Virus record (IMG/VR): IMGVR_UViG_3300002220_000467
From: a virus
DNA length: 31,768 nt
Strand: one strand, 5' to 3'
The notes below the pieces were generated by a model. That model was not told where the DNA came from and made no database searches. It worked only from the letters and a program-made list of their open reading frames with translations. The translations under genes were made by a program, and so were the position numbers. Positions within the stretch are counted from its first letter, which is position 1. Every line of letters starts with the position of its first letter. This document shows positions 4,228 to 31,082 of the stretch, piece by piece.

Positions 4228-5643
4228 GTGATTATTATATCAGTCGGTGAAGCTTTTCGGAACCATTACAGGGATGAGGAGCCTAGCGAACAGGTTGATC
4301 TCCAGGGGCAACCTCTCTATAAGGCCCTGGCGGATGCGATACCTGTATATTGTGCACATGAAAAAATTATAGATATAATAGAGGCTATCCCTAATCCCAG
4401 GAACCCTAATCAGCACCCTGATTCCCAAATAGAGCTGCTGGCTAGGATAATCAAAGCCCAGGGCTGGAGGAATCCCATAGTTATCAGCAAGCTCTCTGGG
4501 TTCATCACCAAGGGCCATGGCCGCCTCCTGGCTGCTCAGAAGCTGGGAGTTAAGCAAATACCAGTCGATTACCAGGACTATGCCAATCCTGCGGCAGAAT
4601 GGGCCGATATCATAGCAGATAACAAGATAGCAGAGCTGGCTACACCAGATAACAAGCTCATCAAGGAGATCCTGGATGAGATCAGGGGCGATATTGACCT
4701 GGACCTTACTGGCTATGCAGGCGTCCAGATGGACCAGCTCCTTAAGGACATTAAGAAGCATGATGATAAATTCAGACCTGGTGAGACCAATAGCCGCCCC
4801 AAGATCGATTTCATAGAGGACGAGAAGAGGGCCCTGGAGGTGCCTGCTGAGGATGCCCATCTATTCGAGGGTAAGAAGAATGTGGTGGTCATATTCTCGG
4901 GCGGCATAGATAGCACCTTTTCATTGTTTTGGGCCAAACAGAACTTCGGTGATCGCAGGGTGATAGGGATCTTCTCAGACCCTGGCGTAGAGCTGCCAGG
5001 TGCGGCTTTGCATGCTTATCAGGTCTGCATGTACCTGGAGGTTGAGTTCGTCCTGGTCAAGCCCAAGAGCGATATGTTCATTGAGATGGTTAAGAGAGGG
5101 GGATGGCCTAGCACCATATTCCCGTGGTGCCAGAGCGATTTCGTTTATGGTCCTATCAATGACTGGATTCTAGCCAACCTGGAAGCGCATGAGACCGTAG
5201 TCATGGATGGCAGCTCTGGTGATCAGGTCACCAGGCTATCCAAGAAAACCAAGACCTCCAAGAGCACCGAGAAAAGGATGCATGAGTACGCATATTATCA
5301 TCCTCGCTATGACGTCTCAAGGGAAGCATCCGAGAAGATCCTGAAGCATGCCGGTGTACCATTCTGGTGGGGCTATGAGATGGGCGCTAAGAGAACCGCC
5401 TGCTGGATGTGCCCTGGCATGAAAGGAGAGCAGGCTTTGTTCATCCAGGAGCGTTTCCCAGGGCTGGCTGATTATGTCCGCAAGATGGAGAAGTACATGG
5501 GAAAGCCCCTAGAGCAGATGAATGACAAGAGCTTTGATATGAAGGTCGAGATCGGAAAGAGACAGGCGGCCCGACGCGCCAAAGGCGAAGCACTGGAGGC
5601 AGAGGAAGATTATAAGATAGTGGCTGACGCGCAGGATAGCTAA
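4228..5643 (+). CDS. ParB-like N-terminal domain fused to PP-loop / PAPS-reductase-family domain
   Basis: N-terminus PNPRNPNQHP..QGWRNPIVIS..GHGRLLAA..ADN is ParB/Srx-like. C-terminus has SGGIDS (4897-4914), DPGVELP, WPSTIFPWCQ and RTACWMCP (CxxC at 5401-5412). Start codon uncertain. Confidence 0.8.
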   Translation: MIIISVGEAFRNHYRDEEPSEQVDLQGQPLYKALADAIPVYCAHEKIIDIIEAIPNPRNPNQHPDSQIELLARIIKAQGWRNPIVISKLSGFITKGHGRLLAAQKLGVKQIPVDYQDYANPAAEWADIIADNKIAELATPDNKLIKEILDEIRGDIDLDLTGYAGVQMDQLLKDIKKHDDKFRPGETNSRPKIDFIEDEKRALEVPAEDAHLFEGKKNVVVIFSGGIDSTFSLFWAKQNFGDRRVIGIFSDPGVELPGAALHAYQVCMYLEVEFVLVKPKSDMFIEMVKRGGWPSTIFPWCQSDFVYGPINDWILANLEAHETVVMDGSSGDQVTRLSKKTKTSKSTEKRMHEYAYYHPRYDVSREASEKILKHAGVPFWWGYEMGAKRTACWMCPGMKGEQALFIQERFPGLADYVRKMEKYMGKPLEQMNDKSFDMKVEIGKRQAARRAKGEALEAEEDYKIVADAQDS

Positions 5644-5660
5644 GCCCAATCGCTAAGTTA

Positions 5661-6440
5661 ATGAAGAAAGGAATTACATTTTGGGTTATGCCTAAAAGAG
5701 AATTTTATCCCAGAGAACGTCTATTAAAAAAGGAGATGTTATTTGGTTACGATCCAGAGAGCGCTAATTCTACTCTGTTTGAAGCTCGATCAATGGATGA
5801 AGTGGCGTTCCTTTATTATCAATGGGATTATTATGCCGTTGGCTATTATTATGCCGCTGATCTAATCGTCAATAATGCTTTAGATGCAACTCTTAGAGGT
5901 GAGGATCGGCAGCGTATAAATGTTGAAAAATATCATATTCTTATTGATAGAATCGATATTGTAGTTTTTCCCGTCATTTTCCTTTACAGGCAGTATCTAG
6001 AGACTAGGTTAAAAACAATGATAATTAAAGACAATATAATAAACAAACTAGAATCTGGGGAAGCTATTGATATAAATCTGTTATTAAGTAAAAAGGATAC
6101 TAATCATAAACTTGATGTTTTATGGAAAAAATGCAAAGAAATAATAAAAAAGAATTATAACGAACAGGGCATTGATACTAATGATGAAATAGAATTGAAT
6201 GTTATGGAGGAGTACATAGAGGAATACAAAAATTTAGATGGAAGTTCATATACTTTTAGATATCCTGTGAATACGAATGGTGAACTTCATCATCTTGATA
6301 TTCCCCAAATTAATCTCAAAAAACTAAGCGAAATTATGAAGAATATTTTCGACTATCTTGAATTTTATAAAGATTGCCAAAATGGTTCTATAGATTACTA
6401 CATGTATGATCGTATAGATTACTACATGTATGATCGGTAA
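5661..6440 (+). CDS. AT-rich HEPN-like protein (probable accessory gene / moron)
   Basis: GYYYAAD..FPVIFLYRQYLETRLK..HKLDVLW..DGSSYTFRYP follows the HEPN ExxLK / HxL / RYP pattern; visibly much lower GC than its flanks. Confidence 0.55.
   Translation: MKKGITFWVMPKREFYPRERLLKKEMLFGYDPESANSTLFEARSMDEVAFLYYQWDYYAVGYYYAADLIVNNALDATLRGEDRQRINVEKYHILIDRIDIVVFPVIFLYRQYLETRLKTMIIKDNIINKLESGEAIDINLLLSKKDTNHKLDVLWKKCKEIIKKNYNEQGIDTNDEIELNVMEEYIEEYKNLDGSSYTFRYPVNTNGELHHLDIPQINLKKLSEIMKNIFDYLEFYKDCQNGSIDYYMYDRIDYYMYDR
6389..6436 (+). repeat. Perfect 24-bp tandem duplication
   Basis: TATAGATTACTACATGTATGATCG occurs twice (6389-6412, 6413-6436), giving IDYYMYDR twice. Confidence 0.95.
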
Positions 6441-6442
6441 CA

Positions 6443-6461
6443 GAGGCGGTTATTCCGCCTC
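6443..6461. terminator. Hairpin between convergent genes, probable bidirectional terminator
   Basis: GAGGCGG-TTATT-CCGCCTC, a perfect 7-bp stem; the minus-strand stop codon lies in the loop. Confidence 0.55.
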
Positions 6462-6839
6462 CTTCTTTGCAGTCTTCTTACCACGCGAGAGAGGTCTTGC
6501 ACCGGATACAAGAGAGGCTAACCCATCTCTCAGGGCTTCCGCTACTTGCTCTTTCACTATATCGGCTAGGGAATCGGCTATAATCTCTTTGATTTGCCCT
6601 TCAATACGCTTATTCCACTTATCCTCGAACTTGACCACGAAGGCCCTGCCATTCCAATGGGATATTGTATCTTCAACGAGCCCAGGCAGATCCTCCTTAA
6701 GCTTCTCTTGCATATACTCGACCGCTCGGGATTCCATATACTGATCCAATACATCCCGGCAGACCGAGCACACGGAAGGTTCGCCTTTGACGGCATTTGC
6801 GGGCAATACGTGTTTGCCACAGAATATACAGGAGGGCAT
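6450..6839 (-). CDS. Zn-finger + helical hypothetical protein
   Basis: CIFC...CSVC; helical middle; basic tail; GGAGGTG RBS upstream. Confidence 0.7.
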   Translation of the reverse strand: MPSCIFCGKHVLPANAVKGEPSVCSVCRDVLDQYMESRAVEYMQEKLKEDLPGLVEDTISHWNGRAFVVKFEDKWNKRIEGQIKEIIADSLADIVKEQVAEALRDGLASLVSGARPLSRGKKTAKKEAE

Positions 6840-6959
6840 TTACTGCACCTCCTTGGGTAGCCATCGGCGCTGTCTCTCTAGTACGATCTTCACCAGGGCT
6901 TTGTAAGCTGGACTGTCTCTGTCCAGGGGCTTGGAGCACTTCTTCGCTTTGCGAGACAT
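6840..6959 (-). CDS. Small basic protein, 39 aa (not in ORF track)
   Basis: Translated by hand: MSRKAKKCSKPLDRDSPAYKALVKIVLERQRRWLPKEVQ. GGAGG RBS 8 nt upstream; TAAATG coupling on both sides. Confidence 0.65.
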   Translation of the reverse strand: MSRKAKKCSKPLDRDSPAYKALVKIVLERQRRWLPKEVQ

Positions 6960-7130
6960 TTAAGCTACCTCCACGCAATCCATAAGCACTATCTCAACTA
7001 CAGTTTGCTCGGCCTCTGCCAGATCTCCGACAACCATAAGCTCGGCCATTCTCTCGGTCTCTGCCGGAGCGGATTCCATAAACACGCCTCTTTCCAGGGT
7101 AGTAACCTCGAACTTCCACAGATATTGCAT
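6960..7130 (-). CDS. Small acidic protein, 56 aa (not in ORF track)
   Basis: Translated by hand: MQYLWKFEVTTLERGVFMESAPAETERMAELMVVGDLAEAEQTVVEIVLMDCVEVA. Its stop abuts the next ATG. Confidence 0.6.
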   Translation of the reverse strand: MQYLWKFEVTTLERGVFMESAPAETERMAELMVVGDLAEAEQTVVEIVLMDCVEVA

Positions 7131-7228
7131 TTTACTTCACATCCCAGAGCGGCTTACACGCCGCCCCTAGTACCTTATAGGCCCGTTTGCGACGTTTTAC
7201 TATCGGTCTACTGATAGCGAAAAATAGT

Positions 7229-7675
7229 CTATAAGCCTTTAACGTATAATCCGGCTTTCCTTAATGCGCGGGAGGCTATACCATTGGAGGGATCACACGC
7301 GGGGCTTTGCTTGAGCATAAAGGCACGCTCGGCACCGAATACCTCGGCCATCCATACGGCCCACTTAGCGCCTTCTAGGTACGCCTCTGTCAAGTTCCGG
7401 CCCCTATACTCCCCCTTGCCCGTCCCTCGCTCAACTACGTGCGGTACATCGCCCTCCCAGGTCACGGCGCAAGGGCACCGGGGCACTGGTAGCCCTCCTA
7501 GCTGTTCAGGGCAGATAGGGACAAGCTCATACTTCTCTTTGAGTTCCTGTACGGTCTTCTCTTTGTAGAGCCGATGGCCCATTTTATGCGTTTGACCGTG
7601 ATATCTGCAGGGCACCCCACAGGCGCATAACGAGATGAGCGCTTTGGGTTTATGTTCCACCAATCTAGTTTGCAT
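7229..7675 (-). CDS. tudS: DUF523 family protein (TudS-like thiouracil desulfidase, 4Fe-4S)
   Basis: ISLCACGVPCRYHG, ICPEQLGGLPVPR, YLEGA, and LKQSPAC match the DUF523 signature SxC..CRYDG / CPE..GGLPxPR / LKxxSPSC; GGAG RBS. Confidence 0.8.
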   Translation of the reverse strand: MQTRLVEHKPKALISLCACGVPCRYHGQTHKMGHRLYKEKTVQELKEKYELVPICPEQLGGLPVPRCPCAVTWEGDVPHVVERGTGKGEYRGRNLTEAYLEGAKWAVWMAEVFGAERAFMLKQSPACDPSNGIASRALRKAGLYVKGL

Positions 7676-28637: not shown

Positions 28638-31082
28638 ATGCCTTCGATGAAAACTGATGTGCTTAGGGATCATGTATTTCGTTATCCTCATCTTGCTAGC
28701 TTGTTGGGAGCCCACGCTGGCAGCCATGTGATACCTGACAAGCCGCCAGCGATCACCGAAAGAGCAGCAGGCGCTAATATGAGCATTGATGTAGGGCCGT
28801 TCAGCTATGTCTTAAATGGGATCGTCGGAGCGAAAACGAGCACAACCAATGTCCCAATAGCTGCTTCGGACTCCAACCCTAGAATCGATTTGCTCTATTT
28901 AGCACCAGACGGTAATCTAGCCATTCTGAAAGGCGCTGCCAGCGCAAAGAAGCCCATGATGGAGGATATTTGGCAGAAATGGGAAGAGCCCTATCCGGCT
29001 GATTTCAGCACCAATGACGGGCTGCTTCTGGCTGAGATCATGGTCCCAGCCAATGCAGCCAGCATCCGAAATGAACATATCCGGAACATTGTGGTACCTG
29101 CTATTCCTGCAGATTTCAACATTATACATTCGGTTGAGATCTTTCAGAGAGGCACTGAGATCATAGCCAGGAAAGCGGACGGCACCATTCTTGAAAGCGG
29201 TATAGCGGGTGTTGATGATACCGACGTATTCGATGCCGCTGCTGCTGGATGCCCGAATAATGGAAGCATAGGCATAGGTCCAGGAACCTACATCCTGGAA
29301 GCTAACAAGCTCTTCTATCTATCAAATAATAGTACGACCAACCCATTTTACTATGCCTTTGGCCCGGCAATGGAAGGAAAGAATTGCCATGTGTACGGGT
29401 CTGGTCCTGGTGTAACCATCCTGAAAATGGCCAATAACCAGCACTATTCCGGCCACCTGGCAGTTCTGATTCTGAATCGAACTACCGGCGATATGAATAA
29501 TGGATTTACGTCCTTCACTCTGGCGAATCTGACGTTGGATGGGAATCGAGCTAATCAGGAGATAGTCTCAGCAATAGATGGGCCGGGCCTATACCTCTCT
29601 GGAAGCGTTCGAACCAACGAGAAAATATTGAATGTGGAGATGATAGATTCCTTTGGCTATGGGGCTTATCTTGGTAATAATGGTAGCGGGCCAACGAAAG
29701 GAGTTATAATTTCTGGAATATATGCGAAGAATTGCTATAAATCTGCAATATGCTTGGATACTACGGCTGATGTTTCCATATCTAATTCTGTCATCTACGA
29801 TGGCAGCATAGGATTGGAGGTATTGGGTAACACTGATTACGCTACTCGCGAATATGATAATATTTCCATCACCGGAGTAACCTGCAAACGCGCTGGAATC
29901 ACTATCTGGTGCATCAATGGATGCGTCGTTTCCGGTTGCACCATGGACATAACTGGAGCTATCGTCCATTCCTACGGACTACAGGTACATTGCAGTCGAA
30001 ACATCGATATCGTGGGGTGCAGGTTCACTGCAAATAAGACCTCACAGTATGTGACCTACATCGATGGCGGCGGGTATATACAAGATGGAAGCTATGATCA
30101 GGTCAAATTCAGAGATTGCACCTTCGATGCTTTCCAGGCTCTGAAAGTGTTTGGCTCCGCGGTAGTCGAGGCATATAACTGTACGTTTCATGCATATACC
30201 TACTCTTACCTGAACGAGCAGCAACAGGAAGTGAGGGTTCCGGGTGCGTGCGTATATCTGAAAGAGTTTGAAGAGACAATAACTGCTGAATTGAAATTTA
30301 CAGGCTGCGAATTTGTGGCCGATGCTTATGACACATATATATTTTATATACCGCCACATTCCACAGTAATCTCTGAGAAATGCAGCGCCCCAAAAGTCGG
30401 GGCAATGTCGATCGGCGGTGGTCTATTTACATATGATTGCACCGGACCGGGCCTGGTAGCATATAACAGCAGATGGGTTGCACAATGGGGCGTGTTCTAC
30501 TCCACTCCTGCCAGCTCTTCCAGCATAACCATGCTATATAACATGGTAAATGCAATACCGATAGGCACGCCAATAAAATACCTGACCAGTGCAGGCGGAC
30601 CATATTTTGGGATTGTCACAGCTATAACGTCTAATCTGCTAACCATCGCAGGCCCGCCGCTGTCAGGAACTATCTATATGATATGGACTGGGCCACCCGA
30701 AATGGTCTGCCAGGTGGATTATCTTATTCCAGGGGCCTATGCCACAGAAGCAAAGACCAACCTGATTCAAACATTCCAAAAATCTTTCTCTCCCTGGCAT
30801 GGGCCGCCTGCATACCTGGTGAGGATCAGCCACCGAGCGCTGGCTGCTGATAGCGGCACTGCTCCGAAAGTGACCGCTTCCATCGAGGGCAACATAGTCG
30901 GAACCGACAATTCCAACACCGGACTGCCAGTTGCCACAAGTTGGACACATACCACCACCGGCATAAATGCCAGCAATTACAGGATAGACCTGAATGATGC
31001 CATTGAGCTGAGAACCACACAAGGCGGAAGTGGCGATTCTACATTTCTCACAGTATCTCTAATATTTGTGTCGGAGAGATGA
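28638..31082 (+). CDS. Tail fibre/spike with parallel beta-helix (pectate-lyase-like) domain
   Basis: N-terminal anchor PRIDLLY..KG..LAEIMVPA; GPGTY, GSGPGVTILK, NLTLDGNRANQ and repeated I.N/G.C.F coils; C-terminal beta domain. Confidence 0.8.
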   Translation: MPSMKTDVLRDHVFRYPHLASLLGAHAGSHVIPDKPPAITERAAGANMSIDVGPFSYVLNGIVGAKTSTTNVPIAASDSNPRIDLLYLAPDGNLAILKGAASAKKPMMEDIWQKWEEPYPADFSTNDGLLLAEIMVPANAASIRNEHIRNIVVPAIPADFNIIHSVEIFQRGTEIIARKADGTILESGIAGVDDTDVFDAAAAGCPNNGSIGIGPGTYILEANKLFYLSNNSTTNPFYYAFGPAMEGKNCHVYGSGPGVTILKMANNQHYSGHLAVLILNRTTGDMNNGFTSFTLANLTLDGNRANQEIVSAIDGPGLYLSGSVRTNEKILNVEMIDSFGYGAYLGNNGSGPTKGVIISGIYAKNCYKSAICLDTTADVSISNSVIYDGSIGLEVLGNTDYATREYDNISITGVTCKRAGITIWCINGCVVSGCTMDITGAIVHSYGLQVHCSRNIDIVGCRFTANKTSQYVTYIDGGGYIQDGSYDQVKFRDCTFDAFQALKVFGSAVVEAYNCTFHAYTYSYLNEQQQEVRVPGACVYLKEFEETITAELKFTGCEFVADAYDTYIFYIPPHSTVISEKCSAPKVGAMSIGGGLFTYDCTGPGLVAYNSRWVAQWGVFYSTPASSSSITMLYNMVNAIPIGTPIKYLTSAGGPYFGIVTAITSNLLTIAGPPLSGTIYMIWTGPPEMVCQVDYLIPGAYATEAKTNLIQTFQKSFSPWHGPPAYLVRISHRALAADSGTAPKVTASIEGNIVGTDNSNTGLPVATSWTHTTTGINASNYRIDLNDAIELRTTQGGSGDSTFLTVSLIFVSER

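Follow-up and report, generated by a model that had tools for sequence, protein, structure and literature searches.

Known systems and the locus under study

The enzymes nearest to the element described here are DndC, SspD and BrxP, phosphorothioation enzymes that share with it a PP-loop ATP-pyrophosphatase domain of the PF01507 superfamily and give its best named hidden Markov model (HMM) matches. In the Dnd, Ssp and BREX type 4 systems, the gene for this 3'-phosphoadenosine 5'-phosphosulfate (PAPS) reductase-like enzyme is linked to a sulfur-mobilising gene (PMC12914056, PMC12839542). BrxP, in which the enzyme is fused to a DNA-handling domain, was shown to make phosphorothioate together with BrxC (PMC12914056), while the description of DndC is that of a PP-loop enzyme carrying a three-cysteine [4Fe-4S] cluster and an additional unique cysteine dyad (PMC10853773). 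We analyzed a 31,768-nucleotide stretch of viral DNA (IMG/VR record IMGVR_UViG_3300002220_000467, hereafter the window), in which a single gene at 4228-5643 joins a ParB/Srx domain to a PP-loop domain, and compared this ParB-PP-loop gene and a TudS-like gene at 7229-7675 with the described systems. The ParB-PP-loop gene shares with these systems the link to a gene of a putatively sulfur-mobilising kind and, with BrxP, the fusion to a DNA-handling domain. The module differs from Dnd, Ssp and BREX-4 in that its partner is a TudS-like Fe-S protein and in that it is virus-borne, lies next to the terminase genes and is without their conserved neighbours.

The only chemistry known for the TudS family is sulfide handling or sulfur removal on the open iron of a three-cysteine cluster; in TudS itself, beside the cluster cysteines, Glu45 and Ser101 are assigned to catalysis, Arg17 to phosphate binding and Tyr18 to base stacking (PMC10611767). 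The ParB fold requires its box II arginine for NTP binding, and phages are enriched in its fusions to methyltransferases (PMC12704722). On double-stranded DNA, a thymine dioxygenase of a phage depends on a ParB-like activator (PMC13229309), and such an activator, which lets a DNA-modifying enzyme act on this substrate, resembles the ParB/Srx domain of the window protein. PAPS-reductase genes of phages are counted as sulfur-metabolism genes in virome papers (PMC8879888, PMC12323421). A phage-borne PAPS-reductase-like gene is also said to help evade Dnd, a proposed counter-defence role (Piel et al. 2022, as cited in PMC13551039); the citing text mentions neither a ParB fusion nor a TudS partner.

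The fusion itself is common in databases, where it is usually labelled PAPS reductase or methylase. In a literature search that was not exhaustive, no paper linking DUF523/TudS to PAPS-reductase-like or ParB proteins was found. Surveys of the phosphorothioation machinery, of BREX and of the ParB fold do not mention the pairing of a ParB-PP-loop protein with TudS, and the main text of the ParB-fold survey (PMC12704722) mentions neither PAPS nor phosphoadenosine.

A TudS-like gene is the conserved partner of the ParB-PP-loop gene

The main new result of the analysis is that the ParB-PP-loop gene has a conserved TudS-like partner. A preliminary description of the window, made from the letters alone, had not connected the two genes, which are as follows.

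4228-5643, plus strand: gene of the ParB/Srx-PP-loop fusion protein; open frame of 471 amino acids with a GTG start, full-length homologues found by protein search
7229-7675, minus strand: gene of a TudS/DUF523-like [4Fe-4S] desulfidase of 148 amino acids, the conserved partner; PF04463 E 1e-18, 68.1 bits against a cut-off of 34.7

The linkage was measured on loci retrieved with the PP-loop family, 49 from IMG/VR and 18 from genomes, to which Methanoculleus virus L4768 was added. A TudS-like gene lay beside the PP-loop gene in 57 of 69 loci. In the reverse direction, the PP-loop gene adjoined in 50 of the 56 viral TudS-like loci with enough flank; one of the TudS search patterns contained the Cys/His signature described below. 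Dereplication at 90% identity reduced 128 loci to 68 groups, 58 of them informative. Both genes were present in 47 of these, the PP-loop gene alone in six and the TudS-like gene alone in five, the single-gene groups being those with room for the partner. Of the 47 two-gene groups, 46 had the partner on the 3' side of the PP-loop gene, with the genes convergent in 34 and co-directional in 12. The spacing usually ranged from an overlap of a few bases to a gap of about 100 bp and was at most 269 bp in 44 of 47 groups.

Clustering of the neighbouring genes over 42 groups revealed the TudS-like gene and the terminase genes as the only conserved neighbours. The same clustering gave no conserved DndD/SspC/BrxC NTPase, DndE/SspB or cysteine desulfurase, no conserved brx neighbours, and no conserved amidotransferase or other donor gene. 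Sub-threshold matches only were obtained for DndD (TIGR03185) in five host genomes, which are metagenome-assembled genomes (MAGs) and may therefore be incomplete evidence of absence.

The partner resembles TudS in its functional residues. The family profile of the TudS-like proteins matched the TudS structure 6z92 with E 3e-29, and C17, C55, C127, E57, S124, R24 and Y25 of the window protein correspond to C10, C43, C104, E45, S101, R17 and Y18 of TudS (DUF523; PDB 6z92-6z96), so that all the residues of TudS named above are kept. C17, C55, C127, E57 and S124 were invariant in a 21-row alignment, and S15 and C17 were nearly invariant in one of 25 rows. The partner differs from TudS in an extra Cys and His near the substrate-binding residues and in being tied to a PP-loop gene, and from RudS, a fusion form of TudS that acts on tRNA, in having no DUF1722. 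In the virus-linked subfamily, the V-R-Y-D-G of TudS reads C-R-Y/W-H-G, the Cys and His being residues 23 and 26 in the window. Their position beside the nucleotide-binding Arg and Tyr could mean a different substrate or a different nucleophile. Complex prediction with residues 30-460 of the ParB-PP-loop protein and the TudS-like protein gave an ipSAE of 0.00 in both runs; controls were not folded, and the value speaks neither for nor against binding.

Domains and conserved residues of the fusion protein

The fusion of a ParB-like domain to a domain of the PAPS-reductase family, read earlier from the translation, was borne out by domain profiles, by a model of the PP-loop domain and by its fold matches. 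The AlphaFold2 model of the protein had a predicted local distance difference test score (pLDDT) of 83. The following features were assigned within the gene, all on the plus strand.

4360-4782, plus strand: ParB/Srx (ParB-CTPase fold) N-domain, residues about 45-185/190; PHROG 620 E 5e-34, PHROG 498 E 7e-38
4513-4524, plus strand: box II-like GHGR, residues 96-99; by alignment to Noc/Spo0J, R99 is the second Arg of the ParB motif GERR
4840-5592, plus strand: PP-loop ATP-pyrophosphatase domain of the PAPS-reductase fold, residues 205-455; domain model with pLDDT 93.5, fold matches, PADLOC and NCBIfam matches
4897-4914, plus strand: PP-loop motif SGGIDS, residues 224-229; read directly, S-G-G-x-D-S invariant in the family
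5128-5130, plus strand: Cys301 in WCQ, the first of three conserved Cys; present in 26 of 26 relatives and in every locus examined
5209-5226, plus strand: GSSGDQ block, residues 328-333; family consensus GSRxDQ, with G328 invariant and Q333 nearly so
5401-5412, plus strand: Cys392-x-x-Cys395 (CWMC) inside an R-T-A-C-W-x-C-P block; invariant or nearly so

The N-domain is of a type found with DNA-modifying enzymes. PHROG 498 is named 'DNA methyltransferase', and its match to the N-domain covers its ParB part; the family profile also matched the N-domain structures of Noc and Spo0J at E about 1e-9. Pfam PF02195 scored 18.3 bits on the window protein, under its cut-off of 26.3, and matched 17 of the 26 relatives. 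The N-domain shares 55-67% identity with its counterparts in many ParB-N6/N4 methyltransferase (PF01555) fusions, and phage fusions of this kind occupy the same genome position, upstream of the packaging genes. The window protein differs from them in its catalytic domain, which is a PP-loop/Fe-S enzyme. A link between the ParB-like domain and DNA methylases had been noted in the preliminary description, and here the same domain was found fused to DNA methyltransferases in other phages. G96, H97 and R99 were nearly invariant among the relatives. No helix-turn-helix and no C-terminal dimerisation domain were found in the protein; the ParB match stops near residue 190, with the PP-loop domain after it. 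Nor does it resemble a canonical partition ParB: TIGR00180 gave 19.5 bits against a cut-off of 58.45, and no parA occurred among the conserved neighbours. Weak matches of the ParB/Srx domain to SerK, SbnI and Srx were also obtained.

Protein searching returned about 30 clusters of full-length ParB-PP-loop proteins at 34-88% identity. The same search returned hundreds of proteins that share only the ParB part (55-67% identity) and carry the PF01555 N6/N4 methyltransferase in place of the PP-loop domain. Exhaustive searching with a profile of only the PP-loop domain yielded, as the best 50%-identity representatives, 150 proteins at E<=1e-30, and 105 of the 150 had the ParB N-domain. The nearest ESM Atlas cluster had 218 members, 87% of them viral; a feature search of the ESM Atlas returned 'PAPS reductase domain' clusters and nothing further.

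In the alignment of 26 sequences, S224, G225, G226, D228, S229, E255, H262, C301, R389 and C392 were invariant and C395 nearly so, and the same residues were conserved over the 69 loci; the search patterns had included the SGG motif and the CxxC (C392, C395) but not C301. The protein has five cysteines in total (42, 267, 301, 392 and 395), with no CC dipeptide anywhere in its 471 residues and no Cys after 395. C267 is Cys in 23 of 26 relatives and Ala in at least three others, a pattern typical of a buried residue and not of a metal ligand. SGGIDS, the single-Cys WCQ at 5128, GSSGDQ and the terminal CxxC were all confirmed where the preliminary description had placed them. Two of its readings apply to the window protein and less well to the family. 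GSSGDQ is present here, but the Arg of the consensus GSRxDQ has been lost in the window protein and its closest relative. Likewise, three conserved Cys are true of the window protein, but 12 of the 26 relatives have an extra Cys at 399, four residues past the CxxC.

Some relatives of the PP-loop domain occur in other arrangements. In two giant or polyvalent phage proteins (P0235, L128:3207-7796; P0261, L129:5001-9056) the domain is fused to an ATP-dependent DNA ligase domain. One of the two also has D12 adenine methyltransferase and XkdF protease domains, and no TudS-like gene lies near either. A stand-alone relative of 241 amino acids (P0191, L130:1630-2355) lies in a phage between radical SAM and PF20691 (TAGT) genes, upstream of the terminase. 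It adjoins type IV CRISPR-Cas genes (Csf3) on a second contig, and there is no TudS-like gene.

Fold and named relatives of the PP-loop domain

The structural comparison proposed in the preliminary description placed the model of the PP-loop domain in the PAPS-reductase fold. The closest solved folds were adenosine 5'-phosphosulfate (APS) and PAPS reductases (Z 15.3-16.8; for 2goy, 7lhr, 1sur and 6vpu, Z 15.6-16.8 over about 180-190 residues, at 13-14% identity): APS reductase 2goy gave Z 16.8 with a root-mean-square deviation of 3.2 over 192 residues, the M. tuberculosis APS reductase Z 16.4, and the PAPS reductases Z 15.6-15.9. NcsA (Z 15.1) and TilS (Z 14.8) were near, and GMP synthase, TilS, QueC and NAD synthetase matched at Z 11-15. 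On this model, the fold is settled as the PAPS-reductase type, and it does not identify the substrate.

Classification against DndC, SspD, BrxP and CysH was based on HMM scores. PADLOC matched the window protein with BrxP at 7.4e-10, in the PP-loop part only, and with SspD at 1.5e-8 over profile positions 3-176 of 277. Among the relatives, the PADLOC models matched 25 of 26 for SspD (best 4e-17), 24 of 26 for BrxP (best 4e-19) and 11 of 26 for DndC. The DndC model TIGR03183 did not match the window protein and matched three of the 26 relatives (best 2e-7). PF01507 gave no match to the window protein at E<=1 and matched 24 of the 26 relatives (best 1.8e-15). The NCBIfam models PRK08557 and PRK13795 matched the window protein at about 1e-9; these two and PRK08576, all archaeal models named 'hypothetical', matched 25-26 of the 26 relatives, down to 4e-22. 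Their archaeal homologues are PAPS_reduct domains fused to PUA or ferredoxin domains. PDB entry 21fy, 'PptA', aligned over the whole PP-loop domain with E 7e-4. PF01171 matched none of the 26 members, and neither DUF4007 nor, in the window protein and its relatives, DUF3440 was found in Pfam scans. A word-based protein search with the PP-loop region alone returned family members only and no named outgroups.

By these scores, no named family is closer than SspD, BrxP and DndC, all phosphorothioation enzymes, and the archaeal PUA-fused homologues, with no score at family level. Together with the missing neighbours and the absent DndC dyad, the profile comparisons place the ParB-PP-loop enzymes in a separate clade within the PP-loop/PAPS_reduct superfamily. 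The window protein differs from DndC, SspD and BrxP in its sub-family scores and in having neither the DndC dyad nor DUF4007. It resembles TtuA, NcsA and TtcA in its PP-loop fold (Z 13.5-15.1) and in the notion of a cluster on three Cys with sulfide on a free iron. It differs from them in having no PF01171 and a single CxxC without zinc-finger pairs, and the similarity is confined to the PP-loop region. An earlier comparison with TtuA-type enzymes holds for the fold and the number of cysteines and extends to nothing beyond these.

The family differs from APS and PAPS reductases

APS reductases require a four-Cys cluster made of CC and CxxC, and APS and PAPS reductases carry a catalytic Cys, in an ECGLH-type motif, C-terminal of the cluster region. 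The window protein shares with APS reductase (2goy, 7lhr) and the PAPS reductase CysH (1sur, 6vpu) the closest solved folds, and with APS reductase the order of the cysteines, one site followed by CxxC. It differs in having an intact ATP-type SGGxDS loop, one Cys in place of CC and no Cys past the CxxC; in the relatives, no Cys after the CxxC is conserved. The NCBIfam CysH model gave no match to the window protein at E<=1, and PRK02090 matched only five of the 26 relatives (best 1.1e-4). The preliminary description had held that the enzyme is not a PAPS reductase, and the missing catalytic Cys and CC pair, the absent CysH match and the exact ATP-type PP-loop all agree with it.

That the gene encodes a true APS/PAPS reductase, as an auxiliary metabolic gene of sulfate assimilation, is therefore extremely improbable. 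Such a role would suit the structural matches, the source annotations that name the relatives PAPS reductase, and the metabolic treatment of such genes in virome papers (PMC8879888, PMC12323421). The residue and profile differences given above weigh against it, as do the ParB fusion, the TudS linkage and the hosts, which are methanogens and other anaerobes that live in sulfide. Since the family fails the tests for a reductase and looks DNA-modifying, the counts of sulfur-metabolism genes in viromes would need revision.

A possible system for the insertion of sulfur into viral DNA

We tentatively propose, with slightly less than even confidence, that the ParB-PP-loop and TudS-like proteins form a compact two-protein system that inserts sulfur into the DNA of the virus itself, all of its chemistry being inferred. 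Indications of sulfur chemistry on DNA come from three independent sides: the type of the ParB domain, the phosphorothioation enzymes among the HMM relatives, and the TudS-like partner. As the specific product we favour a phosphorothioate, though at well under even confidence. It is suggested by the homology to phosphorothioation enzymes, and by the linkage of the PP-loop gene to a sulfur-mobilising gene in Dnd, Ssp and BREX-4, a slot that TudS would fill. The PP-loop/ATP-dependent DNA ligase fusions of the two polyvalent phage proteins would also fit a nick-and-reseal step. The three-Cys pattern does not point away from phosphorothioation, because DndC is described as a three-Cys [4Fe-4S] enzyme (PMC10853773).

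In the proposed mechanism, the ParB domain would deliver the enzyme to double-stranded DNA and perhaps open or nick it, work of the kind that phage ParB-like proteins do in methyltransferase fusions and for a thymine dioxygenase. Using ATP, the PP-loop domain would adenylate a DNA oxygen, for which we pick the backbone phosphate, as proposed for DndC, SspD and BrxP. AMP would then give way to a hydrosulfide, bound to the free iron of a three-Cys [4Fe-4S] cluster, and sulfur would stay behind in the DNA. The TudS-like protein may replace the cysteine desulfurase (DndA/SspA), with sulfide taken from 4-thiouridine nucleotides or from free sulfide, and the NTP-binding fold of ParB may substitute for the DndD/SspC/BrxC NTPase. 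The likely purpose would be to mark virion DNA against host restriction. The preliminary description had proposed for the enzyme the adenylation and thiolation of a nucleic acid, for example viral DNA. This proposal is clearly strengthened by the HMM relatives, the ParB-methyltransferase fusions and the TudS-like neighbour, and the chemistry stays an inference. Its further suggestion of a link to packaging agrees with the place of the gene upstream of terS/terL and has no other basis.

Several observations weigh against this proposal. The support for the whole family comes from sequence, models and context. An NTPase of the DndD/SspC/BrxC type and a subunit for DNA recognition or nicking are both required in the known phosphorothioation systems, and neither is conserved nearby; the cysteine dyad specific to DndC is absent, and the relatives have no further conserved Cys pair. 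Judged from the alignments, the TudS-like protein keeps the residues for binding and hydrolysis of thiopyrimidine nucleotides, which would fit thio-base chemistry better than a sulfide carrier. The convergent arrangement in 34 of 47 groups means that there the genes are not on one transcript. R99 of the box II-like motif is not universal, being Thr in the Methanoculleus-virus group and Thr or Val in a few clades. The structure does not pick a substrate, since the closest folds are APS/PAPS reductases and the tRNA thiolases follow within 2 Z units.

If the product is a phosphorothioate, this would be the smallest such system known, built from two proteins and lacking both a cysteine desulfurase and a DndD/SspC/BrxC ATPase. 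Its carriers would be viruses that infect methanogens, Akkermansia and further anaerobes, and it would bear on how viruses evade restriction that senses phosphorothioate or depends on it.

Alternative explanations

The same pair of proteins might instead act on a base. A pyrimidine carbonyl in DNA would be thiolated, giving 4-thio- or 2-thio-thymine or a uracil of that type, with the TudS-like protein as the matching desulfidase, which would clear thiolated nucleotides from the pool, erase the mark, or use the thiocarbonyl as a leaving group. We consider this, the main rival of the proposal, unlikely, though it accounts for several observations. The partner keeps the counterparts of C10/C43/C104, E45, S101, R17 and Y18; the three-Cys PP-loop enzymes TtuA and NcsA thiolate bases, NcsA being a fold match at Z 15.1; the usual convergent arrangement suggests separate timing, as for a writer and an eraser; and the archaeal sister proteins carry PUA, usually an RNA-binding domain, which makes base chemistry plausible in the clade. 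Against it, we know of no natural thio-base ever reported from DNA. The HMM likeness is to phosphorothioation enzymes and not to TtuA/TtcA/ThiI, with no PF01171 match, and a writer paired with an eraser would be wasteful without temporal control. Stand-alone TudS is reported not to have acted on a polymer, tRNA (PMC10611767). In its fuller form, a thiolated pyrimidine written into DNA as a mark that a dedicated TudS-type enzyme erases or converts, the idea has perhaps a small share of the probability. The Cys and His that the subfamily has near the TudS pocket might then serve substitution by a nucleophile other than water, giving a further hypermodified base. A thio-base would be a new kind of DNA chemistry and the first natural thio-nucleobase in any DNA, and the pair would be the first viral writer and eraser on open-iron [4Fe-4S] chemistry. 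Whether phosphorothioate or thio-base, the TudS family would, if this is true, gain a second biological role beyond nucleotide salvage. Methanoculleus virus Blf4, which is cultured and carries both genes as gp05 and gp06, makes the question directly testable.

Three other explanations depart further from sulfur insertion into DNA. The substrate might not be DNA at all, with thiolated host tRNA or the nucleotide pool remodelled and ParB/Srx used to bind NTP or to regulate. The substrates of TudS and RudS are 4-thio-UMP and tRNA s4U, and RudS also occurs in a phage (PMC10611767, PMC11417400); ParB/Srx folds include the small-molecule kinases SerK and SbnI, as well as Srx, all weakly matched here, and the archaeal sister group is fused to PUA. 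However, ParB domains of this type are found fused to DNA methyltransferases, the gene has the replication module on one side and the packaging module on the other, DNA is the substrate of the named relatives, and thiolation and desulfidation of one RNA would undo each other. This leaves the reading improbable. We give an equally small chance to a sulfur-free, ATP-dependent chemistry on DNA, such as amidation or another nucleophile exchange, with the cysteines forming a structural or redox cluster and the TudS-like protein in another Fe-S role. PP-loop adenylation drives many exchanges, as the matches to GMP synthase, TilS, QueC and NAD synthetase illustrate, and the neighbourhood of the stand-alone relative P0191 holds radical SAM and other DNA-hypermodification genes with no TudS nearby. 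Against this, the sole conserved partner comes from a family with only sulfur removal at an open-iron cluster known, and there is no conserved amidotransferase or other donor gene. Finally, the IbrA/IbrB pair of an E. coli prophage, a PAPS-reductase-like (DUF3440) protein and a separate ParB-like protein described as co-activating gene expression, combines the same two domain types and would suggest a regulator. This is highly improbable, given that the PP-loop and three Cys are conserved across very divergent viruses, which argues for catalysis, that DUF3440 does not match, and that the TudS link has no place in such a role.

Carriers, habitat and locus layout

The large terminase of the window shares 58.6% identity with its counterpart in a virus assigned to Methanosarcinales. 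The closest isolates with the fusion are the Methanoculleus viruses Blf4 and L4768, in which the TudS-like gene follows directly. Their two genes (locus L001, NC_074642.1 1242-2486 and 2532-2942) are annotated as 'DNA modification methylase' and 'hypothetical protein', labels that look wrong and empty, respectively. Further carriers are proviruses in MAGs of Akkermansia, Verrucomicrobiales, Planctomycetota, Bacillota and Desulfobacterales. The stretch 4228-7675 occurred word for word in metagenomes of at least six studies, from hydrocarbon, biogas, digester, sludge and aquatic settings, and 95% of its words were present in an RNA-seq run whose label names one organism. It is therefore probable that the virus is widespread as a provirus and that its host is a cultured anaerobe, likely a member of the Methanosarcinales. 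The digester, sludge, biogas and hydrocarbon settings are anoxic, and these and the anaerobic hosts of the carriers would suit oxygen-labile Fe-S enzymes.

The ParB-PP-loop gene of the window sits between the replication and packaging modules, upstream of terS/terL. Its distance from the partner gene is 1585 bp, unlike the short gaps of most groups, owing to the following insertion.

5661-7228: insertion separating the partner genes, with an AT-rich open reading frame (ORF) of 259 amino acids and small ORFs on both strands
5661-6440: the AT-rich 259-amino-acid ORF in the insertion; no Pfam or PHROG match, GC content 0.31 against about 0.50 in the flanks

In RNA-library run X15, one contig connects 5639 to 6439 through three other letters, which indicates a natural variant without the AT-rich ORF; the ORF has the look of a moron inserted recently. 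Four runs have RNA-library contigs that span the whole locus, although contigs cannot show transcription, strand or level. After the TudS-like gene, the minus strand holds two small ORFs, of 56 amino acids (6960-7130) and 129 amino acids (6450-6839), which may form one leftward operon with it. Elsewhere in the window, ARAGORN called a 96-nt tRNA-Ile (GAT) at 29266-29361 on the minus strand, inside the plus-strand ORF 28638-31082; its unusual length and position suggest either a false call or an intron-bearing gene. The 129-amino-acid ORF has a 36%-identical relative at the same place in another locus (L002).

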